From contig DASXKH010000015.1 of assembly GCA_036496915.1 (NCBI GenBank), positions 902 through 64,901 on the forward strand: DNA of 64,000 bases, given 5' to 3'. Under the pieces are notes generated by a model. The model had not been told where the DNA came from and searched no databases. It was given only the letters and a program-made list of their open reading frames with translations. How positions within the stretch are numbered: the first letter of the stretch is position 1; each line of letters opens with the position of its first letter. Shown here in pieces: positions 31,703 through 62,900 of this stretch. Origin of the DNA: Solirubrobacteraceae bacterium. GTDB lineage: Bacteria; Actinomycetota; Thermoleophilia; Solirubrobacterales; Solirubrobacteraceae. The position numbers and the translations under genes were made by a program.

Positions 31703-31727
31703 GCTTAGGTGTTCCTCCTGGATGGGT

Positions 31728-37833: not shown

Positions 37834-37885
37834 CGCCGCGCAGTTTAGGGGACCGCGCGGACCGCGTGTGCAACGTCCTGCCCAC

Positions 37886-37903
37886 GGTAACAGGATGTTC
37901 ACA
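37886..37903 (+). promoter_or_regulatory. PHO-box-like direct repeat upstream of the response regulator
   Basis: GGTAACAGGATGTTCACA; TAACA and TCACA are 11 bp apart. Confidence 0.45.
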
Positions 37904-37938
37904 AGCGAAAATCGCTATTTGCGAGCCGATCGAGGCGC

Positions 37939-38748: not shown

Positions 38749-38760
38749 TGTCCCAAGCTC

Positions 38761-43467: not shown

Positions 43468-43503
43468 ATAGCCTTGCCTGGACCGTCTCGGGGCGGGTTG
43501 CGA

Positions 43504-43536
43504 AGTCGTGATCGAGTCGTGAAGAACTCGTGAAGA
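43504..43536. promoter_or_regulatory. Three 11-bp direct repeats (PHO-box-like) in the wHTH/DUF47 divergent promoter
   Basis: AGTCGTGATCG AGTCGTGAAGA ACTCGTGAAGA (TTCACGA on the minus strand); CATAAT -10 box at 43561. Confidence 0.65.
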
Positions 43537-43574
43537 GAGCCCGCCGCCTCGGTGGAGGTCCATAATCTCCGCGG

Positions 43575-44989: not shown

Positions 44990-45054
44990 CTGCCCTGCAC
45001 GTCTGTGCACGGCCGGCGAACACGGCACGAGGGGGAGTGGGGCGGCGGGCTCAT
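44986..45054 (-). CDS. 22-aa mini-ORF bridging pstB2 and the lipoprotein gene
   Basis: ATGA overlap with the pstB2 stop and GTGA overlap with the lipoprotein start; MSPPPHSPSCRVRRPCTDVQGR. Confidence 0.4.
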   Translation of the reverse strand: MSPPPHSPSCRVRRPCTDVQGR

Positions 45055-46079: not shown

Positions 46080-47122
46080 GCCTCGTCCTCGTTCGTGTTC
46101 TTCCAGAACGGCAGCCACGACCACGCCATCATCCGCTCGAACATGCCGCGGCGCTCGTGCGTGATGCGCGTCACCAGCGCGTTCAGCGCGATCACCATCA
46201 GCAGCAGCACGAACGCCGCCGCGTACGCCTTCTGCGCCTGGTTGCCTTCGCCCGCGGGGGAGAAATATTTGACGTAGCTCGTCAACGTGCCGCCGGTCCC
46301 GCGCAGCGTCGAGAGGCCCGGAGCCCCGCCCGCCCCTTCCAGGTGCAGCGTCGCCCCGAGCAGGATCACCACGATCGCCGTATCGCCGATGATCCGCCCC
46401 AGCCCCAAGGTCACCCCGCCCGCGATGCTGCGCCGGATCGAGGGCAGCAGCACCTTGCGGATCGTCGTGATCTTCGCCTTGCCCAGGGCGTAGGAGGCCT
46501 CGCGCACGTGACCGGGCACCTGCGCCAGCCCCTCGCGCGTGGCACCCACGACCAGCGGCAGCGCCAGCAGCGACATCATCGCGCCGGCCGTCAAGAACGA
46601 GCGCCCGAACACCGACCCCCCGGCCGAGGTCTGCGACAGGAACGCCAGGAACGGGCGCGAGAACATCAGCAGGCCGAAGATCGCCAGCACCACGCTCGGC
46701 GCGCCCGCGATCATCTCGATGCCCGATTCGACCGCCCGCGCCAGCGCCGCCGGCCGTCCGTACTCGCCCAGCCACACCGCCACCGCCACCCCCAGCGGCG
46801 CCGCGATCAGGATCCCGAGCGCCCCCAGCAGCAGCGTGCCGAGGATCGGATCCAGGAAGCCGCCCGAGGTCGCCTGCGTCGCGCCGACGCCCGGTGATGT
46901 GAACAGCAGGCTCGGGCGCACATAGGCGATGCCCTTCACCAACATGAACACCACGATCGCCCCCGCCGCCACGCACAACCCGATCCCGACCGCCCAGCAC
47001 AGCACGTAGGCGGCGCGGTCGATCAGCGGCCAGCTGCCCACCGAGTCGCGCGGGCGCTCGCGCCGCAGCGCGCTCGCGGGGGGCCCCGCCAGGGCCTCAG
47101 GTGTCGCCGCGGACGCGCTCAT
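46076..47122 (-). CDS. pstA: Second phosphate ABC permease
   Basis: AGAPSVVLAIFG, REASYALG, GRIIGDTA. ATGA overlaps at both ends. Confidence 0.9.
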   Translation of the reverse strand: MSASAATPEALAGPPASALRRERPRDSVGSWPLIDRAAYVLCWAVGIGLCVAAGAIVVFMLVKGIAYVRPSLLFTSPGVGATQATSGGFLDPILGTLLLGALGILIAAPLGVAVAVWLGEYGRPAALARAVESGIEMIAGAPSVVLAIFGLLMFSRPFLAFLSQTSAGGSVFGRSFLTAGAMMSLLALPLVVGATREGLAQVPGHVREASYALGKAKITTIRKVLLPSIRRSIAGGVTLGLGRIIGDTAIVVILLGATLHLEGAGGAPGLSTLRGTGGTLTSYVKYFSPAGEGNQAQKAYAAAFVLLLMVIALNALVTRITHERRGMFERMMAWSWLPFWKNTNEDEA

Positions 47123-48117
47123 GTCCTTATTCCGTACTTCTTCATCGGCTGCTTCACGGCCCACGCGGCCAGCGAGAGGAACGCGCAGGAAACCAGCAGC
47201 ACCGCCGCCATCGCATACAGCGTCTGTTCGAGCGGCACCACCGAGATGCCGTCGATGTAGGCGATCAGCGTCGCCGCCAGCGGGCGCACGGGCTCGAACA
47301 GGAACGTGACCCCGTCCAGCGGGTTGACCGCATACGCGCGCGAGCCTGCGACCATCGAGAGCATGATCGCCTCGCCCAGCGCGCGCCCGGTCGCGAGCAC
47401 CGTCGCGGCGAGGATCGCCGGGCGCACCGTGCGCAGCGACACGCGCCACATCGTGCGCCAGCGGTTCACGCCCAGCGCCGCCGAGCCCTCCGTCCACGAG
47501 CGCGGCACCGTCTCCAGCGCCGCCACGATGATCGCCACCATGATCGGCACGATCATCAGCGCCAGGATCACCACCGCCGTCGTGAGGTTAGTGCCCGTCA
47601 GCTGCACGATGTACTGCACCGAGTGCTTGCGCTGCTGGGAAATGTAGCCCTGAATCCAGGGCGCCACCACGAGGATCCCGATCAGCCCGTAGATCACCGA
47701 CGGCACGGCCGCCAGCAGCTGGATCACCGGGTCGATCGTGCGCCTCACCGGGGCGGGCGCCAGCTCGACGACGTACACTGCCGCCAGCACCGACACGCCG
47801 AGCGCCACGATCACCGCCAGCCCGGTCGTCACGATCGTGTCCCAGATCAAAGGCCACGCGCGGATGTGGTAGTCGTAGTGCGCCGGGTCGGTCGGCCCGG
47901 TGATGATCGCTTTCAGCTGCTGATCGACATCGCCGCCGGGAAAGAACCACTTGATCCCGTTATGCGCGAACGACGGCCACGCCTTCAGGAAGACGGTCAC
48001 CAGCATCAGCGCGATCAGCGCCAGCACGCCGACGGACAGCGAGCCGAGCATCAGCTCGGCTCGCCCATCGGGCGTTCCACGCGGTCGTCGATGCGTCCAC
48101 ATGGAGGATTTCCTCAC
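47119..48117 (-). CDS. pstC: Second phosphate ABC permease
   Basis: LLAAVPSVIYGLIG, EGSAALGVNRW, GRALGEAIM. Start uncertain. Confidence 0.9.
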   Translation of the reverse strand: MRKSSMWTHRRPRGTPDGRAELMLGSLSVGVLALIALMLVTVFLKAWPSFAHNGIKWFFPGGDVDQQLKAIITGPTDPAHYDYHIRAWPLIWDTIVTTGLAVIVALGVSVLAAVYVVELAPAPVRRTIDPVIQLLAAVPSVIYGLIGILVVAPWIQGYISQQRKHSVQYIVQLTGTNLTTAVVILALMIVPIMVAIIVAALETVPRSWTEGSAALGVNRWRTMWRVSLRTVRPAILAATVLATGRALGEAIMLSMVAGSRAYAVNPLDGVTFLFEPVRPLAATLIAYIDGISVVPLEQTLYAMAAVLLVSCAFLSLAAWAVKQPMKKYGIRT

Positions 48118-48194
48118 GACATTTCCACTTCAGCTAAAAAGCCGTTTCCTGCGCAAGCATTGCCCATCGCCGCTCAGGACTCCTCCCGAGCCGG

Positions 48195-48220
48195 GCGCCG
48201 GGCGGTCGTGCGCCCGGCGC
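48195..48220 (-). other. Hairpin after pstS2
   Basis: GCGCCGGGCG-GTCGTG-CGCCCGGCGC. Confidence 0.6.
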
Positions 48221-48244
48221 GCTGTGAACGGGTTGCGTCTGCGC

Positions 48245-49063
48245 CTAGTGGATCGTGATCCACTGCGAGCCGATGATCTTCTTGGTCGTCCTGTTGCCGC
48301 TCGTGATCCAGGCGATGAACTTCGCCGCGGCGCCTTTCGGCCGGCCCTTCGTGACCATCCAGAAGTTACGCACGCCCTGGTACTGGCCGGACTTGGCGTT
48401 CTGCAGCGTGCAGGGGATGCCCTGGTAGCCGACCGCGTTCACGCCGCCCGTGAACGCGAACGACACGAACCCGATCGCGTTCGGGTCGTTTTTGACCTTG
48501 CTCTGCACGAGGCCGTTCGTTTCCTCCGCATTCGCGCTCGGGGCGATCTTCAGGCTCGGCCCGAGGAAGATGTTCTGGAAGGCGTCCTGCGTACCCGAGG
48601 AGGCGATGCGGTCCACGAGGTCGATCGAGCCCGAGATTTTCGAGCCCGGCACTTCGCTCCAGTCGCGGATGTTGCCCGTGAAGATGCCCTGCACCGTCTG
48701 CTGGTTGAGGTTCGCCAGGCGATTGCTCGGATGGGTGATCATGCACACGCCGTCGCGCGCGATCTTCGTGAACACCAGCCCGTGCGGGTCCGAGCCGACG
48801 ATCGGGTCGCGCGAGACGTCGCCGATGTCGACTTTGCCGGCGTTAACTTCGTTGACCCCCGCGTCGGAGGTGCCTTGGTTCACCTTCGGCGTCGACTGGT
48901 GCGTCGCCTTGTGGTAGGCGGAGGCGAGCTGGATCATCAGCGGGTAGATCGAGGTCGAGCCGCTCAGCAGCAGCGCGCGCGCGCCGGCGGCGGCGGGCGC
49001 GGCCAGCGTGAGGGCTGTAACGGCCAGCAGGATGGTCAGGGTACGGGTGGGTCGTCGTCGCAC
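48245..49063 (-). CDS. pstS: Second phosphate-binding protein (different PstS clade, no lipobox)
   Basis: SGSTSIYP, GTSDAG, GDVSRD, RIASSGT, AIGFVS. AAGGAG RBS; the signal peptide has no Cys. Confidence 0.88.
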   Translation of the reverse strand: MRRRPTRTLTILLAVTALTLAAPAAAGARALLLSGSTSIYPLMIQLASAYHKATHQSTPKVNQGTSDAGVNEVNAGKVDIGDVSRDPIVGSDPHGLVFTKIARDGVCMITHPSNRLANLNQQTVQGIFTGNIRDWSEVPGSKISGSIDLVDRIASSGTQDAFQNIFLGPSLKIAPSANAEETNGLVQSKVKNDPNAIGFVSFAFTGGVNAVGYQGIPCTLQNAKSGQYQGVRNFWMVTKGRPKGAAAKFIAWITSGNRTTKKIIGSQWITIH

Positions 49064-49279
49064 GGACAGGCTCCTTGTGTGGGCGGTTTCGGCAGGTTCG
49101 CTGTTACCAGGGTTTTGCCGTCGAGGATCCGTCCCCGGCGAGGCGCCTGCCAGTTTCCAGCCCCTCATCCGCGCAAACGTAAAGAAAATGTGTTCGCTGC
49201 TAGAAATATGCTCAGGCGCGAAAGAGGGGTTCGCCGCACGAACCGGTCCCGGTCGCGAATGGAGCGGTGCGGGCGAAAT

Positions 49280-49297
49280 GTTCTCAACTCGTTAACA
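49280..49297 (+). promoter_or_regulatory. PHO-box-like repeat upstream of the exported-protein cluster
   Basis: GTTCTCA-ACTC-GTTAACA, 11-bp period. Confidence 0.55.
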
Positions 49298-49329
49298 GGT
49301 CGAGGCCTCCCAGGGATCAATCTGCCGGG

Positions 49330-51333
49330 GTGCTCCCTCTGCATCGCGCACGCGGTCTTCCGCGTCGTGCGAGCGCTCGTGCCCGAACGGCGGCCCTCCC
49401 GGCGCTCGTCCTCCTGGGGTTCGCGACGCTCGCGCACGCCCCCGCGGCGACCGCCCTGATCTCCCCGGTCACGACGCTGGACGGCGCCAGCTCGGAAATC
49501 GTCGAGCTCGGCGGCGTCGCGATGGCCTCTGACGGCAGCGGTGGGCTCGTCTATCGCAAGCGCGTTGACGGCCGCCCCCACATCTTCGCCGCGCTCTACT
49601 CCCACGGCGTCTGGCAGGTCCCCCGGCGCGTCGACGTCGGCCAGCCCTTCGAATCCTCCTTCCCGGCGATCGGCGCCGGCGAAGGCGGCAGGCTGGTGGT
49701 GGTCTGGACAAACCACTACTCCTCCACGACCGACGGCCTCTTCTCCGCTGCCCTGGAGCCCGGCTCGACCGGCTTTCAGTCGCCTGTCCCCGTCGACCTG
49801 AACATCGGCCAGGCGATCGGCACGTATCCCTCGGTGGCGATGAACCTCGCCGGCAACGCGCTCGTCGCCTACCGCGTGATCACCGCCGTCAGCGGGCCCT
49901 CCACGCCGGAAATCCCGCCCGGCTACGTCAAGGCCGAAATCCGCATGGCCCGCTTCGACGGCGAGTTCTGGTCCTCGTTCGGGCAGCCGCTGAACCGCAA
50001 CCCCGCCCAGCCGATGCTCGCGCCCACCGCCGCCAACTCCCCGCGCGTGGCGATCGACCTCACCGGGCAGGGCATCGTCGCCTGGCAGGAGCCCGACGAC
50101 TCGTTCGTCAACCGCATCTACGCGCGGCGCATCTTCGGGATGACGCCCGGCAACATCCTCCAGGTCAGCCCCTCCGCCTACGCGGGGCATGCGCTGAACG
50201 GCCCCGCCGACGAGCTCGCGCTCGACACCGCCGGCTTCGGCGAGGGCGCGGTCGCGTGGCGCCAGCGGCCCGCACCCGGCTCGGGCTTCACCCGCCCGCG
50301 CGTGCTCGTCGCGGAGATCCCCTCCTCGTTCGACCCCCACGGCGCCGCCTTCGCGCCCGCGCGGATCGTCGACGGCGCCGGCGCCGAAGGTCCCGCGGGC
50401 CCGGTCGGCCCGCTCAGCCTCGGCCTCGACGGCGAGGGCGACTTCGACGTCGGCTTCGGCTCAGGCGTCTCGAGCCTCGACGCGCGCGGAACCGCAATCG
50501 GCCTCACCGTGCCGGTGCGCATGGACGACGGCGCGAGCGATATCGCCGGCGACCCGGTGGTTACGCGCGCGGACAACGGCGCGCTCGCCGCCGCCTGGAA
50601 GGTCGACGAGCACGGCGCCGGCGCTGTCGGCGTGCTCGAGCGCCGGGCGGACGGCACCCCCAACCGTCAGCTGGTCTCCGCGCCCGGCGGCGGGACCGTG
50701 CACCAGCTGCAGCTCGGCGCCTCCCACCACGGCGACGCGATCGTCGGCTTCCTGCAGGGCGATGGCGCCAACACGAAGATCGGCGCCGTCGTCGTGCGCG
50801 CTCCCCCGGGCGAGTTCGTGCTCGACACGCCCTCGGGCTGGGTCCACGCCGCGAAAGTCCCGCTGCAATGGGAAACCCCCTTGGCGGGCGCCGGCACGCT
50901 CACCTACGGCGTGCTCGTCGACGACCGCGAAGTCGCCGAAAACCTCACCACCACCGGAACGATCCTCCACGGCTCGGAGATCCCGAGCGGCGTCCACACG
51001 ATCCAGGTGCAGGCGACCGACTCGCTCGGGCAGGTCGTCGACTCCGTGCCCGCCACGCTCAAGATCGACCGCACGCCCCCGCGCGTGCGCGTGCGCGTGC
51101 GCGGCAGCTCGGTCACCGTGCGCGTCAGCGACGGGGCCAAGGGGCAGGTTTCGGGCGTCAACGCGAGCTCGGTGCACGTCCGCTTCGGCGACGGCGGCCG
51201 TCACGGCAGCGCGCACGGGCGCACCCTGCTCGGTCATCGCTACGCCGCCAGGGGGTCCTACACGATCACGATCACGGCTTCTGACAAGGCCGGCAACCGG
51301 ACCAAAGTGCGCCGGGCGGTGAAGGTTTCGTGA
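49330..51333 (+). CDS. Exported protein with beta-rich N-terminal domain, Ig-like domain and C-terminal PKD domain
   Basis: Signal ending ATA; IDRTPP; VRFGDG...HRYAARGSYTITITASDKAGN. Confidence 0.8.
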   Translation: MLPLHRARGLPRRASARARTAALPALVLLGFATLAHAPAATALISPVTTLDGASSEIVELGGVAMASDGSGGLVYRKRVDGRPHIFAALYSHGVWQVPRRVDVGQPFESSFPAIGAGEGGRLVVVWTNHYSSTTDGLFSAALEPGSTGFQSPVPVDLNIGQAIGTYPSVAMNLAGNALVAYRVITAVSGPSTPEIPPGYVKAEIRMARFDGEFWSSFGQPLNRNPAQPMLAPTAANSPRVAIDLTGQGIVAWQEPDDSFVNRIYARRIFGMTPGNILQVSPSAYAGHALNGPADELALDTAGFGEGAVAWRQRPAPGSGFTRPRVLVAEIPSSFDPHGAAFAPARIVDGAGAEGPAGPVGPLSLGLDGEGDFDVGFGSGVSSLDARGTAIGLTVPVRMDDGASDIAGDPVVTRADNGALAAAWKVDEHGAGAVGVLERRADGTPNRQLVSAPGGGTVHQLQLGASHHGDAIVGFLQGDGANTKIGAVVVRAPPGEFVLDTPSGWVHAAKVPLQWETPLAGAGTLTYGVLVDDREVAENLTTTGTILHGSEIPSGVHTIQVQATDSLGQVVDSVPATLKIDRTPPRVRVRVRGSSVTVRVSDGAKGQVSGVNASSVHVRFGDGGRHGSAHGRTLLGHRYAARGSYTITITASDKAGNRTKVRRAVKVS

Positions 51334-53492
51334 AACGGATTCTCGCCTCGAGCCAGGTCGCGGTGCTCTGCACGCTCGTCTTCGCCGCTTCGACACACGC
51401 GATCTACGGGCCGGCCGCCGGTGGGCTTGGGGCGGACATCGTCTCGGTCGATCGCGCTTCGGATGAACAGGCCGACGCGCCCACGAGCGACGCCGCGATC
51501 TCGGCCGACGGGCGGTATGTCGTGTTTCAATCGCGCGCGACGAACTTCTTCGAAAACGATGGCGTGGCGAACGGTGACCCCGAACCGCTCGATGCCTGCC
51601 GCGAGGGTGGCATCTTCCGCTATGACCGGGACACCGGCGAACTGGCGCTCGTCGCTGACGGCAGCGAGGCGGTGCTGAACAAGAATGGCGAATGCGAACC
51701 GTCGCACGTGATTCTCGGTGGCGCCGAAAGTCCCTCGATCAGCGCAGACGGGCGCTACGTCGCCTTCGATACCGCCCAGCAACTCGCGCCGCAGGACACC
51801 AATGAAAATTACGACGTCTACGTCCGCGACATGACCGTGCCGCTGTCCGCAGAACGCAAGAGCTCGGGTGCGTACACGCTCGTCTCGGCCAAGAACGGCA
51901 CCGAAGAGCCGGCTGCCTACATATCCAAAGAAACCCCCCAGCCCGGTCGCGAACCCGGCGCCGAAGTGTGGCCCAACACCGCGATCTCGGCCGACGGTCG
52001 CTACGTTGCGTTCCGTACCGGCGAAGTCAGCTCGAATCTGCCGGACGACGCTGGAGTCGAAACGCCGCCGCAACAGCTGTTCGTGCGCGACCTACAGGCA
52101 AAGACGACCACGCTCGTCAGCACCCGGAAAAAGGGTGAACCCGAAGAAGGCAAGCCAGCCGGTGGCGCCATCGGCCCCACCACGATCAGCGGGGATGGCT
52201 CCACCGTTGCCTGGGTGGCAACCAATGCGCCCTCCCAAACGCGTTTCCTGTCCGGGGAGTCGCTGAACAACAGCGAGCCCTACTACCTCTGGCGGCGCTG
52301 GCAGGAACCGGCGGCCGTCACCCGCCGTGTGACCGGAATCGCCGATCCCGACGATCCCGCGTGCCCGCCGGATGGTGAAATTACGTTGAACCAGACCTCG
52401 ACAGGCCCCTGCTATGGACCCTTGAGCGAGCCGGAGTCAGCCCTTGGAAGCATCGCCCTTACGTCTCTTGGCCTGAGCGATGACGGCTACACGGTCGCTT
52501 TCCTGGCCGGTGCTGCGCTGCGTCCGAACATCACGAAGACAAATGGCCTGGATCTCTTTCTCACGAGCATGCGACCCGGCGTGTCGCGCAAGGCCGGTAC
52601 GCGCGAGTTGACGCTGGGTGTCAAATCCGGCAACCCGGGATCGACTCCCTCGATCGAATCGGTCGCGCTTTCCCCGGACGGCTCGACGATCGCATTCACC
52701 TCTTTGCGCGACGACTTCGTGCTGCCCGAACCGGATCCAGTGGGCGCCTTCCGTTCCTTTCCGACGGTGGGCGATCTATACGTTGTACACCTGGGTGCGA
52801 ATACGCTGGAACGCGCGATTGTCAGTTACGAAGGCGGCGATCCGAACAGGTCAGTCTTGGTCAATCCGACGCTCTCCCAGGATGGCTCCACGGTCGCGTT
52901 TGTCTCGGCGGCGACCAATCTCGTATTCGGCGACGGCAATGGCTTCCCCGATGCTTTCGCAGCGACGCTCCAGGCCCCCGGCGGCACGTCCACCCCACCG
53001 GCCGGGGTCAACGCGGGCTCGGGCGGCTTCTCACTAACCGCGGTGTCATCCCCAGAACTTGGCGTGACAGTGAAGCGGGCCAAGGACGGGGGGGTCACCC
53101 TGCTAGTGGAGACACCGGGCCCAGGCAAGCTGGTCGCCAAGGCGCGGGGCTCGATTCCCAAGGCCGCCGCGGCCAGGTCGTCGCGTGCGCACAAGTCCGC
53201 CGCCCGCGCGGCGAAGGCGAAGAAGAAGCCGAAGCCTCCACCCCCAGTCCTGCTCGCGAGCGGGGCGGCGACGGCGCGCTCGGAGGGCACGACCACCTTG
53301 ACGCTGCACATCTCCGCCAGGTACGTCAAGGACCTCAAGCGCGCCGTCAGGCTCAAGGCCAACGTCGCGATCGCTTTCACGCCGCCCGCGCCGGCCGAAG
53401 CGCTGTCGGACGAAGTCTCCGCGACGTTCGTCTCCGCTTCGCCGGCGAAGAAGCCTTCGCAGAAGAGCAAAGAGAAGAGGAAGAAGGGGTGA
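51330..53492 (+). CDS. Exported TolB/PD40-like beta-propeller protein with basic C-terminal domain
   Basis: Repeated (P/A)xISxDGRYV(A/V)F motifs; D(V/L)(Y/F)VRD; Lys-rich tail ending KRKKG. GTGA overlap. Confidence 0.88.
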   Translation: MKRILASSQVAVLCTLVFAASTHAIYGPAAGGLGADIVSVDRASDEQADAPTSDAAISADGRYVVFQSRATNFFENDGVANGDPEPLDACREGGIFRYDRDTGELALVADGSEAVLNKNGECEPSHVILGGAESPSISADGRYVAFDTAQQLAPQDTNENYDVYVRDMTVPLSAERKSSGAYTLVSAKNGTEEPAAYISKETPQPGREPGAEVWPNTAISADGRYVAFRTGEVSSNLPDDAGVETPPQQLFVRDLQAKTTTLVSTRKKGEPEEGKPAGGAIGPTTISGDGSTVAWVATNAPSQTRFLSGESLNNSEPYYLWRRWQEPAAVTRRVTGIADPDDPACPPDGEITLNQTSTGPCYGPLSEPESALGSIALTSLGLSDDGYTVAFLAGAALRPNITKTNGLDLFLTSMRPGVSRKAGTRELTLGVKSGNPGSTPSIESVALSPDGSTIAFTSLRDDFVLPEPDPVGAFRSFPTVGDLYVVHLGANTLERAIVSYEGGDPNRSVLVNPTLSQDGSTVAFVSAATNLVFGDGNGFPDAFAATLQAPGGTSTPPAGVNAGSGGFSLTAVSSPELGVTVKRAKDGGVTLLVETPGPGKLVAKARGSIPKAAAARSSRAHKSAARAAKAKKKPKPPPPVLLASGAATARSEGTTTLTLHISARYVKDLKRAVRLKANVAIAFTPPAPAEALSDEVSATFVSASPAKKPSQKSKEKRKKG

Positions 53493-53528
53493 TCGCGCCG
53501 ATCTTGTGACCACTTTACGCAAAGTGTT

Positions 53529-53579
53529 GTTACCAACTTGTTATCAATCTGGAACCAAGTCGTAACTTCTCGTCACAAC
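53529..53579 (+). promoter_or_regulatory. AT-rich array of 11-bp-period repeats (PHO-box-like)
   Basis: GTTACCA (53529), GTTATCA (53540), GGAACCA (53551), GTAACTT (53562), TCACAAC (53573). Confidence 0.55.
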
Positions 53580-53699
53580 TTGATGCCGCGGCGTTACCGC
53601 CTTGTATATCTTCTGTGAACGGGCTTGCGCTCGGGCGACGGGGCGTGTGAGACTCGCTTCTGTTCCCGACCTCTGCTCGTGAAAGGACTCATCCTGCTC

Positions 53700-55760
53700 A
53701 TGCGTGCAAGCTTTCCCCTGACCGCTGAACGCGGTCGTATCCGCGCCGTCGTAGCGGCGCTCTGTGCGGTGGCCGCGATGGCCGCTGTCGCAGCCGTGGC
53801 GCCGCCCGCGGCGCACGCCGCGTTTACTATCGGACGTTGCGAAGGCGCCCCCATCGAAGGCCAGGGCTCCTCTGCTCAGAAGGAAGCCCAGCTCGAATTC
53901 TGGAGCACTACCGTCTTTCACGGCGTGGAAGGCTGCGGCGCTTCGGCGCCTCACGTGGAATATAAGGGCAACGGAAGCGGCTGTGGGATCGCCTCAATCG
54001 GCGGCGCTGCGAGTTCGATCGAATGCCTTGGCTTTACGGCGGCTGAATCGAAACCCGGGTTCCGGGCTCCATCGACCCGCTACGCCGGAAGCGACGCGCC
54101 GCTGACCGTCACCCAGCAGCTTGCGGCCGACGCCGCCGGCGGGACGAAACCCGGCGTGATCCACCAGATCCCGGTTGCCTCGTTCGCGGTCGCGATCATC
54201 GTGCACTTCCCTGAAGGGTGCAAGCTCAAGGACCCGGGCTCCGGAGCTGCCTCCAACGGCACGGTGGGCAGCCTCAATGGCGATACAAGCACCGGTGGTC
54301 CCAATGATCCGCCTGGCGGAGAAACGGGGGACAAGGCGTCCGAAGAAACTCTGCGCGTTCACATCGAAGCGTCCGAGATGGAGACGATCTGGGACGGAAC
54401 GTCTCAGACCTGGGGAAACATTGTTCCCGAAGCGGATCTCGAAGGCGAAGGCAAAACCGCCAAAGAATGCGCTGAAGTGCCGGTAATCCGGATTGCCCGG
54501 TTCGATGGCTCGGGTACTACATACAATTTCAAGGCATACCTTAGCCTGCTGCCCGGCGCACCTGCTGGTCTGTGGACGGAAGCGCCGGTTGCCGGTGACA
54601 ACTCCACCTGGCCTGAAACCTTCAATTCTGAAAAGAAGAAGCCTGAAGCCGTCACGATTACAGAACCCGTCGGTAAAAAGACATTTGAATGCAAATCGTC
54701 CAACCACATCTGTACTGCTGCCGCCGAAGGGGGCGGTCCGCTCACCGAAGCTGTGGCTGGTGTCAACGGCTCGATCGGCTACGCGGACCTAGCGACGTCC
54801 CGCAAGCACGGCTTCTACATGGAAAAGAACAAAAAAGACCACACCTACTGGATTCCGATGCAGACCGTCAGTCCGGAAAAAGGCAACGAAGTAGGCGTGG
54901 GTTACGCTGAGCCCTCCGAAGTGGCGACTTCCAATTTGGTTGCCTCGCCCGAAGGCGCCAATTGCACGGACGCCGACTACCGCGGCTTCCCAACCGAAGG
55001 GGCAGACCCGACCCTTGGCGATTGGGAAAAATCGATCGCTACGGGTAGCACTGCCAGTGCAATCAAAAACGAACCGGTTCACGCCTATCCGATATGTGCC
55101 CTGACGTATGACTTCGCATGGGATGACGACGCGCCTGTGTACGGCGAAAGTCTGGAAGAGCAGGAAAAGGCCAGGACCGTCAAGGACTACCTGGAAGGTG
55201 TCGAGTCGACCAAGGGCCAGTTCCAGTTGGCTCTGCACGACTATGGAACGCTGCCGCTCAGCATCGTGCAGATCGCCCAAAACGGCGTGAAAGCGATCGA
55301 CTGGAACAAGTCGGCGGGCTCCGGTAAAGGCAGCGAAGAAGTTGTGAAACCGCCGGAAAGTAAAACTCCGACGGTGACCACCACGACCACAACGACGGTC
55401 GTTACACCCCCCAGCAACGTCTTCTCGGTCGCAGGGACCAAGATCAAGGGCAAGAGCGTCGTGCTCTCGCTGGTCCTCCCTGGCGCCGGGAGGGTCCAGA
55501 TCAAGGCGGTCGGTGGTGGTGTGACGGTGGCCAACGTCTCGGCGAGCGTGGGCGGCGGTCAGGGAACGGTGACGTTGCCGATCTCGAGCGCTGCGGTGAA
55601 GAAGCTCGCGAAGGTCAAGGGCCACAGGCTGTCGGTCAAGATCACGGTGACGTTTACGCCCACGGGCGGAGCGGCGGCGAGCAAGACGAAGACGATCACG
55701 ATCACCCAGGCCGCGATCACGGCGAAGAAGAAGACGAAGAAAGGCAAGAAGAAAGGCTAG
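53700..55760 (+). CDS. Exported PstS/DING-like phosphate-binding protein with insertions and basic C-terminal domain
   Basis: GQGSSAQ, GSGCG, AGSDAP, RFDGSGTT, GSIGYAD, YPICALTY; AHA signal cleavage site; Thr linker; tail ending KKGKKKG. Confidence 0.85.
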   Translation: MRASFPLTAERGRIRAVVAALCAVAAMAAVAAVAPPAAHAAFTIGRCEGAPIEGQGSSAQKEAQLEFWSTTVFHGVEGCGASAPHVEYKGNGSGCGIASIGGAASSIECLGFTAAESKPGFRAPSTRYAGSDAPLTVTQQLAADAAGGTKPGVIHQIPVASFAVAIIVHFPEGCKLKDPGSGAASNGTVGSLNGDTSTGGPNDPPGGETGDKASEETLRVHIEASEMETIWDGTSQTWGNIVPEADLEGEGKTAKECAEVPVIRIARFDGSGTTYNFKAYLSLLPGAPAGLWTEAPVAGDNSTWPETFNSEKKKPEAVTITEPVGKKTFECKSSNHICTAAAEGGGPLTEAVAGVNGSIGYADLATSRKHGFYMEKNKKDHTYWIPMQTVSPEKGNEVGVGYAEPSEVATSNLVASPEGANCTDADYRGFPTEGADPTLGDWEKSIATGSTASAIKNEPVHAYPICALTYDFAWDDDAPVYGESLEEQEKARTVKDYLEGVESTKGQFQLALHDYGTLPLSIVQIAQNGVKAIDWNKSAGSGKGSEEVVKPPESKTPTVTTTTTTTVVTPPSNVFSVAGTKIKGKSVVLSLVLPGAGRVQIKAVGGGVTVANVSASVGGGQGTVTLPISSAAVKKLAKVKGHRLSVKITVTFTPTGGAAASKTKTITITQAAITAKKKTKKGKKKG

Positions 55761-55794
55761 GCGTAAGCAGCTGGCCGACTCAAGGCAAGATCCA

Positions 55795-55849
55795 AGCACA
55801 CGGCCCCGGCGCCCGGCACCGCAGTTAGGCGCCGGGTGCCGTCCGTGCT
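55795..55849 (+). other. Long hairpin after the PstS-like gene
   Basis: AGCAC/GTGCT, ACGGC/GCCGT and CCCGGCGCC/GGCGCCGGG pairings. Confidence 0.65.
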
Positions 55850-55912
55850 CCGGCGGATGTTTGTTGTGTCCGCAGTTACGACAACCACGACGACAAGAGC
55901 GCTCAAACACCC

Positions 55913-58144
55913 ATGACTGACGACGACGATATCCAGCCCGAGGGCACAGAGCCCGGAGACACAAGTCCCACGCCCGCGAACGGCCGTGCTCCGGGGGAGA
56001 TCGCCGGGGCGTCCAAGCCCCGCCCGTCGGCCTCTCGCCCGTCGGTGCGCTCGGGTCTTGCGCATAAACGCAATCCGGTGCTTGCCACGGCGGGAGACAT
56101 CGCTGTCGGTGCGCGCCGGCTCGTGTTCCGCGACAAGCTCGCGCTGTTCCTGGCGGTCGCGTCGATCGCGCTGGCGGTGACGTTCTTCGTGCTGTTGGGG
56201 TCGATCGGCCCCTCCAGCCACGGCACGGAACTGCCGATCAGCCGCGTCGTCTCGCTGGCCGAGCACAAACAGGTCGCGACGGCGACGCTGCTCGACCACG
56301 ACGATCGCGTGGAGATCGCGCTGAAGGCGCCGACGGCGGCGGGCAGCGTGCCGGCCGGGACGGCGTCCGGCGGAACCACAGCGACAGGGACGACGACTGC
56401 CGGCTCCGAACAGCTCAACACGACTTCTAAAAACGCGCCGCTGGCCACGCCCGCGAAGCTCGAATATTGGGCCGCGTACCCCGTCTCGGGCGCGCAGACG
56501 CAGGGGCTTTTGCAGACCCTCACCCGCGCGGGCGTGGTCGTGAACGTCGATCAGCAGTCGGGCAAGGCGCCGCGCGCGATCCTCGTGCAGTTCCTGCTGC
56601 CGATCCTGCTGCTCGTGTGCCTGTTCGCGCTGTTCATGCGCATCGGCGCGGACGGCGGCGCGGGCGGGATCGCGGCGTTCTCGGAGTTCACCGGCAAAGG
56701 GCGCAAGAAGGGCAAGGGCAAAACTGAAGCGATCACGTTCGCGGACGTCGCCGGCGCCGGTGAGGCCGTGGCCGAGCTGCGCGAGATTCGCGACTACCTG
56801 AACGACCCTTCGCGCTATCTGAACGTGGGCGCGGCGGCGCCGAAGGGCGTCCTGCTGGTCGGCCCTCCGGGCACCGGCAAGACATTGCTCGCGAAGGCGG
56901 TCGCGGGTGAGGCAGACGCCTCCTTCTTCTCGCTGTCGGGGTCGGATTTCGTCGAGTCGCTTGTCGGCGTCGGCGCGGCGCGCGTGCGCGATCTGTTCGC
57001 GAAGGCGCGCAAGGCGGCGCCGGCGATCATCTTCATCGACGAGTTCGACGCCGCCGGGCGCAAGCGCGGCGCCGGCATCGGGCAGGGCAACGACGAGCGC
57101 GAGCAGACGCTGAACGCGCTGCTGGTGGAGATGGACGGCTTCTCCGGCGACGGCGGCCTGGTCGTGATGGGCGCGACGAACCGACCCGACATCCTCGACC
57201 CCGCGCTGCTGCGCCCCGGGCGCTTCGACCGCCAGGTCACGATCGACGTCCCCGACGTGCACGGGCGCCTGGAGATCCTGCGCCTGCACGGCGCCAAGCG
57301 CCCGCTCGGACCCGACACCTCGCTGGAGGAGATCGCGCACCAGACGCCGGGCTTCAGCGGCGCCGAGCTGGCGAACGTGATCAACGAGGCGGCGCTGCTG
57401 AGCGTGCGCGACTCAAACCACGAGATCGACCAGGCGACGCTCGAGGAGTCGATCGATCGCGTCGTCGCCGGACCGGCTAAAAAGCACATCCTCACGCGCG
57501 AGGAGCGCTGGCTGATCTCCGTGCACGAGGCCTCGCACGCCGTCGTCACGGATGCGCTGGGGCACACGAGCTCGACGCGCAAGCTCTCGATCGTCGCGCG
57601 CGGGCGCACGCTGGGCACGGCCGCGCACATGCTCACCGACCGCGATCAGGTGATCCAGACCGAGTTCGACCTGCAGCGTCAGCTGATCGTGATCGTCGCG
57701 GGCACGGCCGGCGAGCGGATCGCGTTCGGCAGTCTCTCCACGGGCGTGAGCGACGACCTGCACGCCGCGACCTCCCTGGCGCGCAGCATGGTCACCTCGT
57801 TTGGCATGTCAACCGCGCTGGGACCGGTGACGATCGGCGAGAAGGGCGGCGAGGTCTTCCTCGGCGCATCGCTGCAGGACCTCGGCTCGGTCGGACCGTC
57901 CACGCTCGACCTGATCGACCGCGAGGTCGAGCGGCTCGTCGGCGACGCCGAAACGCGCGCCGCGTTCATCCTCGACCGCCATTGGAGCGCGGTCGAGGAG
58001 ACCGCCAACGCCCTGCTGGAGCAGGAGACGCTGTCGGGCGTCGCGCTCGACGCCGTGCTTTCGACCGTGCACGAGATGACGCTCGAGGAGCTGCGCGACG
58101 TGCGCCGTCCCGCGCCCGAGCGGGACCCGGGGCGCAGACCTTGA
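55913..58144 (+). CDS. ftsH: FtsH-family AAA+ zinc metalloprotease paralogue
   Basis: Two TMs, [49 protein letters not shown]. Confidence 0.93.
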
Positions 58145-59919
58145 GGCGGCCCGCCGCCGGGATGCTGATCGCCGCGGCGATCGTCTCGGCCGGCGTCGCG
58201 TCCGCCCGGGGCGAAGCGAGCTGGCGCCTGGAACAACCACCGCCGCCGGAAGGAGCACCGTTCAAGGTCCCTCTCGGACGCGTCGACGACATGGAGTTCT
58301 TCGCACCCAACGAGGGCCTGTTGAGCGTCGAGGGCAACGCCACCATCTCCGCCGGTCTGTTCTTCTACAACGGGCGCGGCTGGCATCAGCTGGCGACCGT
58401 GTGTGGCGGCGCCGGAGAAGTCTCGCGCATCGCCTGGGCGGGACCCGACGAGTTCTGGACGATCACCGAACCGAGTGAGCCACGGGTGGGCTCCGGGCTG
58501 GGACTGTGTCACTTCAAGGAAGGCGTGGTCGTCGGTTCCTACTCGACGCCGCTGCAGTCCCCGGACCCGTTCCATCCGCTCGATGCGGCCGCCTGCAACG
58601 GCCCGGACGACTGCTGGTTTGCGGGCGTCGGGAGCGAGGATCCCTCGGGGCAGCGCATCGGCGCCTTTCATCTGCATTGGAACGGGACGGCCTTGACGAG
58701 CTCCTACCAGCCCCAGGGCCGTGGTGTCAGTGGGCTGGCGTTCTTCCACGGCGCCTTCTACGAGAGCACGTTCGTCGGCGCCGAAGCGGGCAACACGACC
58801 AAGCAGGTGACGTTGGCGACGCCCGAGCCCGAACACCCGATCCTGGTGCACAAGCTGGTCGGCTCGACGTTCACCGGCGCGAGCTTTCTGCCCTTCCCCT
58901 ACCCGGGCGTGCCGACCGAAGGCACCGAGCTGCTGTCGGCCAAGTCAGACGGCTCTGGCCTGTGGTTCTCCGGAGGCGGCGCCGCCTCGGGACCGGACGC
59001 ACCGCGTGACGGATCGGTGCCGAGCCCGCCCGTGGCGGTGCGCTACTCCGAACCCTTCTATCAGCAAGCCCCGATCGAAACCTCGCTGTTCGGACCTGAA
59101 GATCGCTTCATCGACATCGCACCGGTCCCGGGCACCGAAGATGCCTGGGTGGCCGACCAGCCCTATGCGTCACGCGGGAGCGCCACCGCCAAGGCCAAGG
59201 TCGCGCTGATCGGGGCGGACGGAGCGAGCACTCTGGACGTCCTGCCCGTCAGCGGCCCGGCGCGGGGAAGCGCGCAGGCGATCGCCGCCACCGGCCCCGA
59301 AGAAGCCTGGATGGCAACCTCCGCCGGCTGGTTGTTCCACTACACCAACGGGGCCGTACTGCCCGAAGACACCGATGCCAACTGGACGAGCACGATCACC
59401 CAGCGCCCGAACGAGTCGATCGAACAGTTCGTGCCCGACACTCCCCCGGCGGACAACTCGCAGCTGTTCGCGCCGCCCCCGGTCGCGGTTGAACAGGCGC
59501 AGAGCCTGGAAGCACCCGTGCCGGAGGTCATCCCGGCGCTGCTGAAGGACATAAAAGTCTCCCGCCACGGCCTGACCGTGATCGTCAGCTTCAAGCTGGC
59601 GGGCCTCGCCGATGTCCAGCTGATCGCCAAGCGCCACGGCAAGACGATCGCCAAGACCGCCAAGCTGCGCCTGAAGGCCGGTAGGCACTCATTGAAGCTG
59701 AGCTTCAGCGCCAAGCGCTGGCCGACCGGTCTGAGCTTCAAGACCAAGGCGCTCGTCAAGCTCAAGCCTGTGCCCGCGACCGGATGTGAAGGCAAGTCCG
59801 GTGCCTCGGGCGGCGGGGGCGCAGGCCCCAATGCGGTCGCGACGTCATGCGAATCGGGCTCCTCCTCCAGCTCCCCGGGCGCGGGGCCGAACGCGGTCGC
59901 CACGAGCCTGCGCCGATGA
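58141..59919 (+). CDS. Exported hypothetical protein (propeller-like) with basic C-terminal domain and duplicated GAGPNAVATS tail
   Basis: TTGA overlap with the ftsH stop; signal peptide; DCWFAG and EAWMAT blade-like motifs; Lys/Arg-rich C-terminal domain. Confidence 0.8.
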   Translation: MRRPAAGMLIAAAIVSAGVASARGEASWRLEQPPPPEGAPFKVPLGRVDDMEFFAPNEGLLSVEGNATISAGLFFYNGRGWHQLATVCGGAGEVSRIAWAGPDEFWTITEPSEPRVGSGLGLCHFKEGVVVGSYSTPLQSPDPFHPLDAAACNGPDDCWFAGVGSEDPSGQRIGAFHLHWNGTALTSSYQPQGRGVSGLAFFHGAFYESTFVGAEAGNTTKQVTLATPEPEHPILVHKLVGSTFTGASFLPFPYPGVPTEGTELLSAKSDGSGLWFSGGGAASGPDAPRDGSVPSPPVAVRYSEPFYQQAPIETSLFGPEDRFIDIAPVPGTEDAWVADQPYASRGSATAKAKVALIGADGASTLDVLPVSGPARGSAQAIAATGPEEAWMATSAGWLFHYTNGAVLPEDTDANWTSTITQRPNESIEQFVPDTPPADNSQLFAPPPVAVEQAQSLEAPVPEVIPALLKDIKVSRHGLTVIVSFKLAGLADVQLIAKRHGKTIAKTAKLRLKAGRHSLKLSFSAKRWPTGLSFKTKALVKLKPVPATGCEGKSGASGGGGAGPNAVATSCESGSSSSSPGAGPNAVATSLRR

Positions 59920-62900
59920 GCTCCGAAGGCTTGGTTGGTCGTCGTATCGGCGCCGTCGCAGGGATGGCGCTGCTTGCGCTGCTCGGTCTCTACTGCCTGG
60001 CGCATCTGGTCGGCTCCGGCGCGCGCGCGGACACGGGTGGGAACGATCCCCAGCCCCAACCGGTGCTCGGCACCGCCTCTGGTCCGACGGTCTTGATGGG
60101 TGCCGCCACCTCGGGTGAACCGGGAGAGGCGTGGGCGTACCGCGTACTGCCACTGAACGTTCCGCCACCCGCGAACGGGAACGGACGTGCGCAGTTCGCC
60201 GCGCCGCCGGGTGGCGAATCGCCACCGGGCCAGCTGGTGTTCGAGCGTGCGACCGACGCCAATCCCGATTGGACGGTCTACGAAACCCCACTGAGCGAAG
60301 CCCAGGCCCAGCCCTATCGGGGGATGAGCCCCGATCGGCCCTCGGCGAGAATCACGCCACACGCCGGCGGCCTGCTCGCCGGACAGGACCCGACGCGGCC
60401 CTCGGGCAAGCGGATCGTGGTGCTCGCACGCGATCCGGGCGGACGCTTTCACGTGCTGCCCGAACCGTCCACGGGGGTGCTGCCCGAAGCGGGCGAAGGC
60501 GGGGATCCCGCCGCGGGAACGCTGGGCGAAGGCGAAGGCGCCGGGGCGGTCGCCGACGCAGCTATTGAAAGCGCTGGTCACACCGAAGCGTATTTCGCCG
60601 CGCTTGGCCGCAAGCAGGATACGTCTATCGCGCGCTGGAGCGGCACGCAGTGGTCACGCGAGCCCGTGGAACTGCCCAGCGGCTACACCGGCTCCTTCAC
60701 GATCGTCGCGCTCGCCGGGACGACGCCACAGAACATGTGGCTGCTCGGCAAGGCGAGTCAGGAAAGCGGCCTCGGGCCGATGCTGTTCAAGCGCGTGGTC
60801 AACGGCTCGGGCGAAGGGCGCTGGGAACACGTCGAGCTCGGCTCGGCGCTGTTCGCCCAGGCTGCGACTCCGGCGCAGAACGTCTCGGACCTCGCGCCGC
60901 TCGCCAGTCCCGGTCAGTCGCTCACCGTCTCAGACCAGGGGGTGTGGATCGACGGCAACATGCAGGCGCCGGGCGGCGGCAGCAACGGTTACGACTTCAC
61001 TCTTTACTACGACATCGCCCAGGCCAAGGTCACGACGAGCTGGTGCGACGCCCATAGCGGCGGCGGGGAAGCGCTGTGCGCTCATCCGCTGGGCGTGCGC
61101 TTTGGACGCCTCGCGGGCTATCGCAGCTTCGCCTTCGACGGCGCCGGCTTCGGCTCGCGGATCGTCACCAACCCGCTGCAGCCCGGCGGCGGGGACTCGA
61201 CCAACATGGGTTCCTATTTGAGCCTCGAAGGCGCCACCTTCCAGCGGATGCCCGGCGCTGGGCCGAACGATGCGCCCGGTGGCGCCTTCTACACACCGAG
61301 CGATGGTTGGCTGGAAGGACTGGTGCAGATCACAGGTAATGCTCAGCCCCAGCGGCTGACGAGCTGGCCCGTGTCCGCGCGTGCGCCGTTCACGGGCGTT
61401 GCGCCTGCGCCCGGGACAACGCCGGGCGATCCCAATGCGCAGGCGCTCGCCGTCGGCGCCGGAGGGGCCGTCGCCCGCTACATCCCCGGACAGGGTTGGC
61501 AGCGTGAGTTCCTGCTCAGCTCGAGCGGCGCGGTCAGCTCGCCCACGCTACGGGCGGTCGCGTGGCCTGAGGCCAATCGTGCTTTCGCGGTCGGCGATCT
61601 CGGTGCGCTATGGGTGTGGCGCGCGGAAACCGGCCTGTGGGAGAAAGATCCGGCGGCGCCGCCGGAAGGCACTCACGCCGATCTGCTGGGGATCGCCTTC
61701 GACCCGAGTGATCCCGCGCTCGGCTATGCCGTCGGCCTCAGCGGGACGCTGTGGAGCTATGACAAGACCTGGACGCAGGACGCGCTGCCCGAACCATTCC
61801 AGAAGGAGCTCAGCGAAGGTCTCAACGGAAACCCCGAAGAAGCCCTGAAGGCGAACTTCACGTCGGTCGCCTTCGCCGGATCGGAGGCGATGGTCGTGGC
61901 GGAACACGATCTGCTCGTCAACTCCGGCTCCGGGTGGCGAATCGACCCTGAAGTCCACGCCCTGCTGGCGAGCTTGTCGAGCCGACCGCAGCTGAACGTC
62001 ATCGCCGGTCTCCCGAATGGCGGGGCGGTGCTCGCCGGGCACAACGTGGTGTTGGAGCGAGATGGCGCGACCGGCCCGTGGCGCTTCTCCGAACAGCCGA
62101 TCGTGGATGAGACCGCGGTTGCGGCGAGCGCCTATATGGATGGCTCGAAAGTGCGCGCCGTGCTTTCGGTGGTGCCGGACTTCATCTACCCACCACCGCT
62201 GATCCTGCCGCCGATCGACCCCAACACGCCGCCGCCGCTGATCCCGCCCAACCCCCTCCCCGGCGACGGCTACATGTTGCGCGAAACGGGCGGCGGCTGG
62301 GAGGACGAGGAGCGCGCCGCCTACGCGGGCGACAGCGAGGACAGGCCGGTCAAGGCCGATCCGATCGCCGCGTTCGATCTCGGCCCCGAAGGCTCGGGCT
62401 GGGCCGTCGGTGGATGGAGTGGGCACGCCGACGACGCCGGACGCGGGACGGACAACGGTGGCTCGGGTCAGGCGGTGCGCGAAAACGTGCAGACCGCCGG
62501 GATCTACCGTTACGCGCCCGGTGGTGGCGCACAGAGCCCGCCGAGCGCCGCAACCGCTCCCGTCTCGTTGCAGGCGAACGTCGCGACGTTCGCACTCGCC
62601 GGCCATGCCGAGTGCGCCGAACACTGTGCCGACCTTGCCGACGAGGGGATCGCCCCCGACCGCAATCTGACAAGTGCGCTGAGCGCGATCGATGGCCTTG
62701 CGGGCCAGCCCAACGGCCCGCGCGCGCTCCTCTACACCGGCGGACGCGAGACGCCGGGCGAGGGTCCGGAGTCGAGCGCCGAGGCCAACCGTTACGCCCA
62801 GCTGCTCGCCCAAGGCGGTGGGCTGGGAGTGTTCCCGGCCGTATCCGCGGGGGATTCCGAAGGCGGCGGCGCGGGCGCGTTCGGCGCGGCGTTCGCCGGC

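Follow-up and report, generated by a model that had tools for sequence, protein, structure and literature searches.

PstS proteins (TIGR00975/PF12849), known from E. coli (1IXH), M. tuberculosis (PstS-1, 1PC3), and cyanophage Syn19 (7XG7), are phosphate binders with a two-lobed type II fold. The DING proteins, such as PfluDING (2Q9T/4F1V) and human HPBP (2V3Q), have a conserved N-terminal DINGGG, a single domain of 38-40 kDa, two conserved disulfides, and four external loops relative to PstS, and phosphatase and nuclease activities have been reported for some of them (PMC7922408). PstS and DING proteins also occur on surface appendages of P. aeruginosa (PMC2242829, PMC3949141), and released, glycosylated PstS is known from Streptomyces, namely S. 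lividans and S. coelicolor (PMC2605767, PMC7866108); both are precedents for PstS-type action away from the membrane-proximal transporter under phosphate limitation. Here we analyzed a stretch of 64,000 nucleotides (nt) from a Solirubrobacteraceae bacterium (assembly GCA_036496915.1, contig DASXKH010000015.1, positions 902 to 64,901), referred to as the window, and describe a gene at its positions 53700-55760 on the + strand that encodes an enlarged PstS homologue of 686 amino acids (aa). Our best reading, held with moderate confidence, is that its product is a phosphate scavenger, or "sponge," that is retained in the envelope at the cell surface and induced by phosphate limitation.

The enlarged homologue shares with PstS the fold, eight phosphate-ligand positions, and a phosphate gene neighborhood, but it differs in carrying about 170 residues in seven insertions, in having ten cysteines and no lipobox, in lying outside a pstSCAB operon, and in adding a linker, an Ig-like domain, and a polybasic tail. 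The surface-associated or released proteins of P. aeruginosa and Streptomyces are of ordinary PstS or DING size and have no dedicated anchor domain, whereas the enlarged homologue would carry its means of retention within the polypeptide itself, in a module that is common to a neighboring protein. What is new is the enlarged, probably disulfide-rich head, the previously undescribed Ig-like and polybasic module, and a conserved surface-protein gene module; the phosphate-binding chemistry is standard.

The open reading frame (ORF) is a real gene. The longest ORF at the locus spans 53625-55760 (+), and the true start within it is the ATG at 53700, with the stop codon at 55758-55760. A Shine-Dalgarno sequence, GAAAGGA, lies at 53681-53687 with 12 nt between it and this ATG, and in the family alignment all homologues start here with MR(A/V)S(F/L)PLTAERGR. 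The PstS-type phosphate-binding domain (aa 41-537; 53820-55310, +) comprises 497 aa with a mass of 51.9 kDa and an isoelectric point (pI) of 4.7, and the mature protein is 66.6 kDa. TIGR00975 (NCBIfam) matches the protein in three stretches (E 2.2e-12, 46.7 bits). A phmmer search of the PDB with the single sequence returned one chance nanobody match and nothing else; a profile of 36 family members matched solely PstS chains among PDB sequences (best 8ods, E 1.2e-8), and hhalign placed residues 32-357 of the window's canonical PstS1 on residues 43-535 with a probability of 98.7% (E 1.9e-16). The AlphaFold2 (AF2) model, with a predicted local distance difference test (pLDDT) score of 74 (mostly 80-95 in the core) and a predicted TM-score (pTM) of 0.68, indicates a type II periplasmic-binding-protein fold like that of solved PstS. 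Foldseek matched it to Syn19 PstS (7xg7, E 3.2e-12) and M. tuberculosis PstS-1 (1pc3, TMt 0.78), with TM values of 0.77-0.79 for PstS matches overall. We conclude that the protein belongs to the PstS superfamily as a genuine, though distant, member, nearest to the TIGR00975 type, and is, as a first-pass annotation of the window had proposed, the third PstS homologue in it beside PstS1 (41813-42907, -) and PstS2 (48245-49063, -).

The phosphate-contact motifs listed in that annotation, GSSA (56-59), GSD (130-132), and RxDGSGTT (RFDGSGTT, 267-274), are all present, invariant in the 36 aligned members, and located at ligand positions of solved PstS chains. In alignments to 2z22 and 8ods, S58 and A59 (through the backbone), S93, D132, R267, S271, G272, and T273 fall on the eight PstS ligand positions, which in E. 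coli PstS we take to be T10, F11 NH, S38, D56, R135, S139, G140 NH, and T141. All eight are invariant in the 36 members. Across 118 diverse representatives of 430 aa or longer, drawn from the top 150 matches of an exhaustive search with clustering at 50% identity, 95-116 sequences retain each of them. The site is therefore under selection, and the natural expectation from these residues is that the protein would bind orthophosphate.

Relative to PstS1, hhalign distributes the additional residues over roughly seven blocks (at about 68-80, 103-123, 172-215, 245-257, 309-343, 380-400, and 415-450), some of them strongly conserved, e.g., N193...T198-G199...N202-D203-P204...D211. Six of the ten cysteines in the mature protein occur family-wide (47, 79, 174, 257, 422, and 466), while 95/109 and 331/338 form two pairs that are each gained or lost jointly among the 118 representatives, a pattern that would fit five disulfides, with 47-79, 95-109, 174-257, 331-338, and 422-466 as the predicted pairs. 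Large insertions and multiple cysteines had both been noted at first pass, and both hold.

These features recall DING proteins, which are PstS-superfamily phosphate binders with added surface loops and disulfides, are secreted or surface-associated, and are encoded apart from pst genes (PMC7922408, PMC3949141). DING proteins, however, have four cysteines rather than ten, and the enlarged homologue adds a C-terminal module. Membership in the DING family was rejected, as the N terminus is not DINGGG and the 51.9-kDa domain and 66.6-kDa mature protein compare with 38-40 kDa. In the family-profile search of PDB sequences no DING chain appeared at E≤1, and Foldseek alignments to DING structures (13-16% identity, TMt 0.58-0.66, root-mean-square deviation 7-10 Å) were poorer than those to PstS. 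The earlier label "DING-like" therefore survives as an analogy only. The comparison also raises the idea that the protein is an extracellular enzyme, e.g., a phosphatase or a phosphodiesterase, a claim made for some DING proteins. Such activities (phosphatase and nuclease) are on record for some DING members (PMC7922408), and the conserved Asp/Asn-rich insertions, such as N193...NDP...D211, could be cited in its favor. The enlarged homologue is no DING protein, however, and Pfam and NCBIfam scans of it detected no catalytic domain or metal-site family. We also know of no established catalytic mechanism for the periplasmic-binding-protein fold, and we regard an enzymatic role as highly improbable.

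The protein is predicted to leave the cell by means of a Sec-type signal peptide (aa 1-40; 53700-53819, +), recognized from the family alignment and a hydrophobic segment at 12-40. Signal peptidase I would cleave at AHA/AF (the slash marks the cut), so that the mature protein, encoded from 53820, begins with AFTIGRCEGAPIEGQGSSAQ; A38, A40, and F42 around this site are invariant in the 36 aligned members. Cys22, in the context AAL/C, forms no lipobox and is variable among family members. By contrast, PstS1 of the window has a classic lipobox, LGLGAC/G, and the lipoprotein anchor of canonical Gram-positive PstS is absent from the enlarged homologue. The first-pass description of a non-lipidated protein with a signal peptidase I site was thus correct. 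The same annotation had called the product a surface phosphate sponge, a sensor, or an S-layer-like protein, and of these the sponge is our best reading; the other two are unsupported. A stand-alone gene, an extracytoplasmic product, and pstS-like codon usage could all suit a phosphate sensor or an S-layer protein, but the protein has no transmembrane or signaling domain beyond its signal peptide, and Pfam detected no SLH, S-layer-anchoring, or other wall-binding domain in it. Its ten cysteines are also atypical of S-layer proteins, and we consider either role very doubtful.

The C-terminal part of the protein suggests how it could be held at the surface. A disordered Thr/Pro-rich linker (aa 538-570; 55311-55409, +), with pLDDT <50 over its whole length, follows the binding domain; it is among the least conserved regions of the protein (0.48), has a Gly- or Pro-rich counterpart in Conexibacter orthologues, and is a possible site of O-glycosylation. 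Next comes an Ig-like beta-sandwich domain (aa 571-672; 55410-55715, +) with the motifs PSNxFS...LPGAG...TFTPTGG and no acidic residues. Modeled alone, these 102 residues reached an AF2 pLDDT of 91.9 with 7 strands and 1 helix, and their conservation (0.85) is the highest in the protein, compared with 0.67-0.79 for the binding core. The C terminus is a Lys-rich polybasic tail, ITAKKKTKKGKKKG (55716-55757, +). Domain and tail together contain 21 K/R and 0 D/E and have a pI of 12, against 4.7 for the head, so the basic beta domain of the first-pass annotation is confirmed in charge and, by the model, in fold. There is no Pfam family for the Ig-like domain; Foldseek found nothing for it at E≤0.001, the closest matches being generic beta-sandwiches (best E 1.8e-3), and a word-indexed search restricted to the C-terminal domain recovered solely fragments of the same family. 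Scans of the C-terminal part with Pfam and NCBIfam gave no match to known Gram-positive surface anchors (LPXTG/sortase, SLH, LysM, GW, or WxL), and no hydrophobic segment precedes the basic tail. Polybasic C-terminal tails are found on other actinobacterial surface proteins, such as mycobacterial HBHA, which has no transmembrane or sortase signal and whose Lys-rich tail mediates binding to polyanions. In the enlarged homologue, such a tail comes after a conserved Ig-like domain and accompanies the head of a binding protein.

This module is not restricted to the enlarged homologue. The gene upstream encodes a secreted PD40 (TolB-like) beta-propeller (51330-53492, +; PF07676, E 8e-15) whose C terminus likewise comprises an Ig-like domain, homologous to that of the enlarged homologue, and a Lys tail. 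A narrower hidden Markov model (HMM) of the C-terminal domain, derived from close relatives, did not detect this neighbor; the HMM built from diverse representatives found it (E 1.3e-8 for the window protein) and across the loci matched 76 orthologues of the enlarged homologue, 68 PD40 orthologues, and essentially nothing more. When all ORFs of 150 aa or more in the 81 loci plus the window were considered, Lys-rich C termini were confined to these two groups of orthologues plus frameshifted fragments of both, and tails rich in R/K/H were found across the 50%-identity representatives. PD40 retains the module at loci whose paralogue of the enlarged homologue is without it. Such shorter paralogues lie at L074 (11707-13350), L076 (4164-5744), L079 (6441-7880), and L080 (9881-11389), and in two of them the signal peptide is followed directly by a Lys/His-rich stretch, as though the basic anchor had shifted to the N terminus. 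From the common module we infer that the enlarged homologue and the PD40 protein may co-localize, via an anionic envelope polymer or a common partner.

The surface module could also be interpreted in structural terms, with the enlarged homologue as a structural or adhesive part of an assembly that includes the PKD, PD40, D1, and D2 proteins encoded around it. Its pocket would then grip phosphate that is part of a polymer or a mineral (teichoic acid, phospholipid, extracellular DNA, polyphosphate, or apatite) rather than free phosphate. This would agree with the persistence of a module of secreted or anchored proteins through rearrangements, with a C-terminal domain that is more conserved than the binding domain, and with a polybasic tail suited to polyanion binding; M. 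tuberculosis PstS-1, moreover, also acts as an adhesin. The pocket itself argues otherwise. The E. coli PstS pocket encloses orthophosphate completely, and among the eight ligands kept here is the Asp responsible for selecting protonated phosphate, so that an ester or polymer would have no obvious space to fit. Pfam also detected no known adhesin or wall-binding domain in the protein, and we judge a structural role improbable.

The gene neighborhood is rich in phosphate functions. On the - strand, a phosphate island holds ppk (34161-36323), phoU (37939-38748), pstB (38761-39849), pstC (40658-41689), and pstS1 (41813-42907; 346 bits against TIGR00975), and the gene for an OmpR-family response regulator (36907-37833) adjoins phoU. 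The pst2 operon, pstB2/pstA2/pstC2/pstS2, occupies about 45051-49063 on the same strand as identified with Pfam and NCBIfam (pstB2 from ~45051, pstA2 at 46076-47497, pstC2 at 47119-48117), with the TIGR02136-type pstS2 (48245-49063) as its first gene. Divergent from pstS2 are a PKD/Big protein gene (49267-51333, +) and the PD40 gene; the enlarged homologue is followed by ftsH (55913-58144, +), D1 (58141-59919, +), and D2 (59916 to past the window end, +). This order is kept in ~60 of 79 loci, Conexibacter and S. soli included. The gene thus lies between the PD40 gene and ftsH, 4.5 kb from the divergent pst2 operon, in conserved synteny. It comes nearly always directly after the PD40 gene, which adjoins it also in the rearranged loci L074, L076, and L079, and where the order is broken it keeps with PD40, D1, and D2 and not with pst or ftsH, as in L080 (PKD-PD40-D1-D2-enlarged homologue); in L074 the order is D2-PKD-PD40-enlarged homologue-paralogue. 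The PD40 protein is a probable partner of the enlarged homologue. As for the earlier statement that the gene is detached from permeases, it is right for the transcription unit but not for the location.

This proximity leads to a further explanation, in which the protein is an alternative substrate-binding receptor of a Pst ABC transporter, most plausibly Pst2, and docks on PstC/PstA with its C-terminal module replacing the lipid anchor. The phosphate site is intact, the 4.5-kb distance to pst2 is conserved, and PstS2 itself is under its own family cut-off and not lipidated; the flexible linker of ~33 residues, furthermore, could let the head reach the membrane. Both pst operons, however, already encode their own PstS, the rearranged loci L074, L080, and L066 keep the gene with PD40, D1, and D2 rather than with pst, and the gene appears to have its own promoter and terminator. 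Large insertions around the core also speak against an ordinary receptor, and overall we find this explanation unlikely, though not implausible.

The sequence around the gene indicates a stand-alone transcription unit. Repeat array A (53528-53578, +) consists of five phased 11-bp units, TGTTACC, TGTTATC, TGGAACC, CGTAACT, and CGTCACA, conserved in 45 orthologous upstream regions; Tandem Repeats Finder (TRF) reported a period of 11 and an 11-bp tandem at 53527-53547. These units are candidate binding sites for an OmpR/PhoB-family regulator. Array B (53592-53620, +), with CGTTACC, TGTATAT, and TGTGAAC at 11-bp spacing, lies directly upstream of the -35 element, and CTTCTGTRAAC is conserved at its position in 43 loci. 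Since a generic sigma-70 scan found no promoter upstream of the gene, the putative core promoter (53625-53654, +) was assigned from conserved blocks in 45 aligned upstream regions: a -35 element TTGCGC (53625-53630), an 18-nt spacer, and an extended -10 element TGT-GAGACT (53646-53654). The upstream region is conserved in 45 loci even where the proteins share just 45-60% identity. The pattern TGTTACN5TGTTAC with ≤1 mismatch was found 33 times across 54 loci of ~22 kb, in every case a short way upstream of the gene and in 32 cases no more than 500 nt from the start; with ≤2 mismatches the window contains 5 matches against 0.2 expected. A repeat-rich promoter had been claimed at first pass, as had a downstream hairpin, and both are supported. 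The hairpin, a GC-rich terminator-like structure at 55800-55842 (+) between the gene and ftsH, has a 12-16 bp stem at the same position in 23 loci with differing sequences, and we read it as a conserved terminator. An Rfam search over 53300-56000 found no RNA family.

Related boxes precede other genes of the window. The promoter of the response-regulator gene beside phoU contains TGTGAAC-atcc-TGTTAC (TTGTGAACATCCTGTTACCGTGGG; 37887-37903, -), which is of the same type as the boxes of the enlarged homologue's promoter and mixes TGTGAAC and TGTTACC. In the divergent pstS2-PKD intergenic region, GTTCTCAACTCGTTAAC (49280-49296, +) faces the PKD-PD40 operon; as GTTCTC-N5-GTT(A/C)AC, this box occurs at that position on the operon's own (+) strand in nearly all of 45 matching loci, many reading ...CGTTCAC; in Conexibacter loci this box is found upstream of the enlarged homologue itself. 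Across loci, the pstS2 promoter has GTTCAC repeats at 11-bp spacing and, after them, GAGACT or GACACT, an element common to it and the core promoter described above. In Streptomyces, PhoP binds 11-nt direct repeat units, and a PHO box is made of two or more such units (PMC7866108); the layout of the pstS2 promoter agrees with this. The promoter of the enlarged homologue has eight 11-bp phased units, conserved in 45 loci, with the core GTTACC compared to GTTCAC for pstS2. The simplest reading of these motifs suggests a shared OmpR/PhoB-type regulator, probably the Pho regulator, for the enlarged homologue, PKD-PD40, pstS2, and the response-regulator gene. These pstS2-like, PHO-type repeats, the C-terminal module in common with PD40, and the conserved surface-protein module are additions to the first-pass annotation.

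Taken together, our best reading would have the enlarged homologue secreted by Sec, non-lipidated, and stabilized by disulfides, with orthophosphate bound inside a closed cleft of the canonical kind. Its acidic head would be connected through a flexible, Thr-rich linker to the extremely basic Ig-like domain and poly-Lys tail, and this basic module would most likely keep it attached, without a covalent bond, to anionic material of the cell envelope or to a conserved partner. When phosphate is limiting, expression of the gene is probably induced together with that of the pst genes. The PD40 propeller encoded next to it has the same anchor module, and the two proteins could form an outer layer for phosphate capture, which would either pass phosphate on to the Pst transporters in the membrane or act as a surface buffer for it. 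A broader version of this proposal, which we offer tentatively and think less probable, is that PKD, PD40, the enlarged homologue, D1, and D2 make up a dedicated surface phosphate-harvesting assembly in Solirubrobacterales that is induced by phosphate limitation and uses the previously undescribed Ig-like and polybasic anchoring module.

Several observations weigh against the scavenger reading. The TIGR00975 score of 46.7 bits is far under the curated cut-off of 205 bits, and a Pfam scan of the protein gave zero matches at E≤10, PF12849 included. The conserved synteny could partly reflect a generally conserved gene order in small genomes. Given the difference between GTTACC and the GTTCAC of pstS2, the regulator could be another OmpR-family protein, and the repeats also fit the pattern gTnAc-n6-GaAAc, which we take to be that of the GlnR box; competition between GlnR and PhoP at promoters is reported in PMC3561978. 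Finally, the sequencing runs that carry the gene are DNA metagenomes only, with no RNA-seq run among them.

Solirubrobacterales are abundant in soil, where phosphate is often limiting, and they are hardly studied. If the scavenger reading is correct, these bacteria would have a phosphate trap with its own surface tether, separate from the receptor that serves the transporter, and this would be a way to extend phosphate capture beyond the membrane in thick-walled bacteria. The Ig-like and polybasic module would then be a new candidate retention signal for surface-proteome prediction and display engineering; under the broader assembly proposal, it would give monoderm Actinomycetota a new signal for displaying proteins non-covalently at the surface. 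A disulfide-rich phosphate binder could also serve as a robust reagent for phosphate sensing or recovery. The known mechanism of phosphate binding and transport is unchanged by our findings.

By sequence searches, the family appears to be confined to Solirubrobacterales and related Actinomycetota. A word-indexed search gave 249 full-length matches, the top 120 at 52-89% identity, with names that read either "hypothetical" or [quoted passage not shown] From the exhaustive search came 1,319 representatives with E≤1e-3, of which 208 reach E≤1e-30; among the representatives are forms of 430-520 aa without the C-terminal module; the few named representatives are proteins of Conexibacter or of Actinomycetota metagenome-assembled genomes (MAGs). 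In GTDB species genomes we found 79 loci, 77 of them labeled Solirubrobacterales, Thermoleophilia, or unclassified Actinomycetes, and the cultured Conexibacter stalactiti, Conexibacter sp. CPCC 205762, and Solirubrobacter soli (DSM 22325) are among the carriers. Divergent orthologues keep the full plan of AxA/AF, binding domain, Gly-/Pro-rich linker, PSNxFS, Ig-like domain, and basic R/K/H tail. Our literature search found no paper on this family. The two off-lineage labels belong to L048 (CAJCHW010000098.1, Chlamydiae bacterium), which is a typical Solirubrobacterales locus with pst, PKD, PD40, the enlarged homologue, ftsH, D1, and D2, and L065 (CAMCVN010000021.1, Bifidobacterium breve MAG), which has the enlarged homologue followed by ftsH only; both contigs are probably mis-binned or mislabeled. 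Longer relatives point to further fusion architectures: in P0221 (726 aa), P0235 (936 aa), and P0247 (901 aa), the PstS-like domain is C-terminal, after 450-630 residues outside the profile, and in P0212 (944 aa) it is at the N terminus (4-659).

The codon usage of the gene was also compared with that of its neighbors. GC content at third codon positions (GC3) is 0.75 in the enlarged homologue and 0.78 in PD40, lower than in ftsH (0.885) and pstC2 (0.92), in ~72 genomes. Recent horizontal transfer was rejected as the cause because the low GC3 is conserved across these genomes. Glu is encoded by GAA in 88-89% of cases in the enlarged homologue and 88% in pstS1, while cytoplasmic genes use GAG, and the gene has the highest GGT and CGT fractions. 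Its codon usage therefore resembles that of pstS1 and pstS2 (GAA 0.88, raised GGT and CGT), which fits high expression but could just as well reflect a bias peculiar to secreted proteins. The GAA fraction was 0.52-0.88 in the secreted or surface proteins examined (pstS1, pstS2, PKD, PD40, the enlarged homologue, D1, D2, and DUF1775) and 0.03-0.19 in most cytoplasmic or membrane proteins (ppk, the response regulator, phoU, pstC, and FtsH). High-GAA regions of the window are 30971-31744, 41813-42907, 48245-49063, 49267-55760, and 58141-64000, and low-GAA regions are 34161-41689, 45051-48117, and 55913-58144. This split by protein location is conserved over ~70 genomes (L003-L081), with eight gene families counted.

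Further observations concern the neighboring genes. D1 (~590 aa) and D2 (~1,500 aa) are proteins of unknown function with signal peptides. D1 has a basic C-terminal segment that by eye is possibly Ig-like; the D2 orthologue in L001 (16252-20943) ends in a C-terminal transmembrane helix, forming a membrane anchor, and an Arg-rich tail. A third conserved protein past ftsH, D3 (~262 aa; L001 20940-21734), has an N-terminal transmembrane helix. All three remain linked to the enlarged homologue in rearranged loci as well. None of D1, D2, D3, or the PKD protein had an informative Pfam or NCBIfam match, and PDB sequence searches with the PD40 and PKD neighbors returned nothing. The mechanical ORF starts of pstS2 and PKD are probably too long; pstS2 likely starts from GTG 49063 (VRRRPTRTL...) and PKD from a GTG near 49330, which gives a divergent regulatory region of ~265 nt (49063-49330) with boxes in both directions. 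The PKD mRNA may be leaderless because its box ends ~30 nt ahead of the start codon. Directly upstream of pstS1, an ORF at 43012-43584 (-; 190 aa stop to stop) encodes an OmpR-family winged-helix DNA-binding domain only, with no receiver-domain match; it abuts the DUF47 gene on the opposite strand (43575-44204, +) and may be a truncated or receiver-less regulator. Beyond D3, a second conserved promoter-like element, TGTGACGATTTTGTGAA and ATTCTGTGAAC, uses the TGTGAAC unit of the enlarged homologue's promoter and occurs in loci L003-L053 on the minus strand, ~11.2-11.7 kb downstream of the start of the gene, which corresponds to ~64.9-65.4 kb, outside the window.

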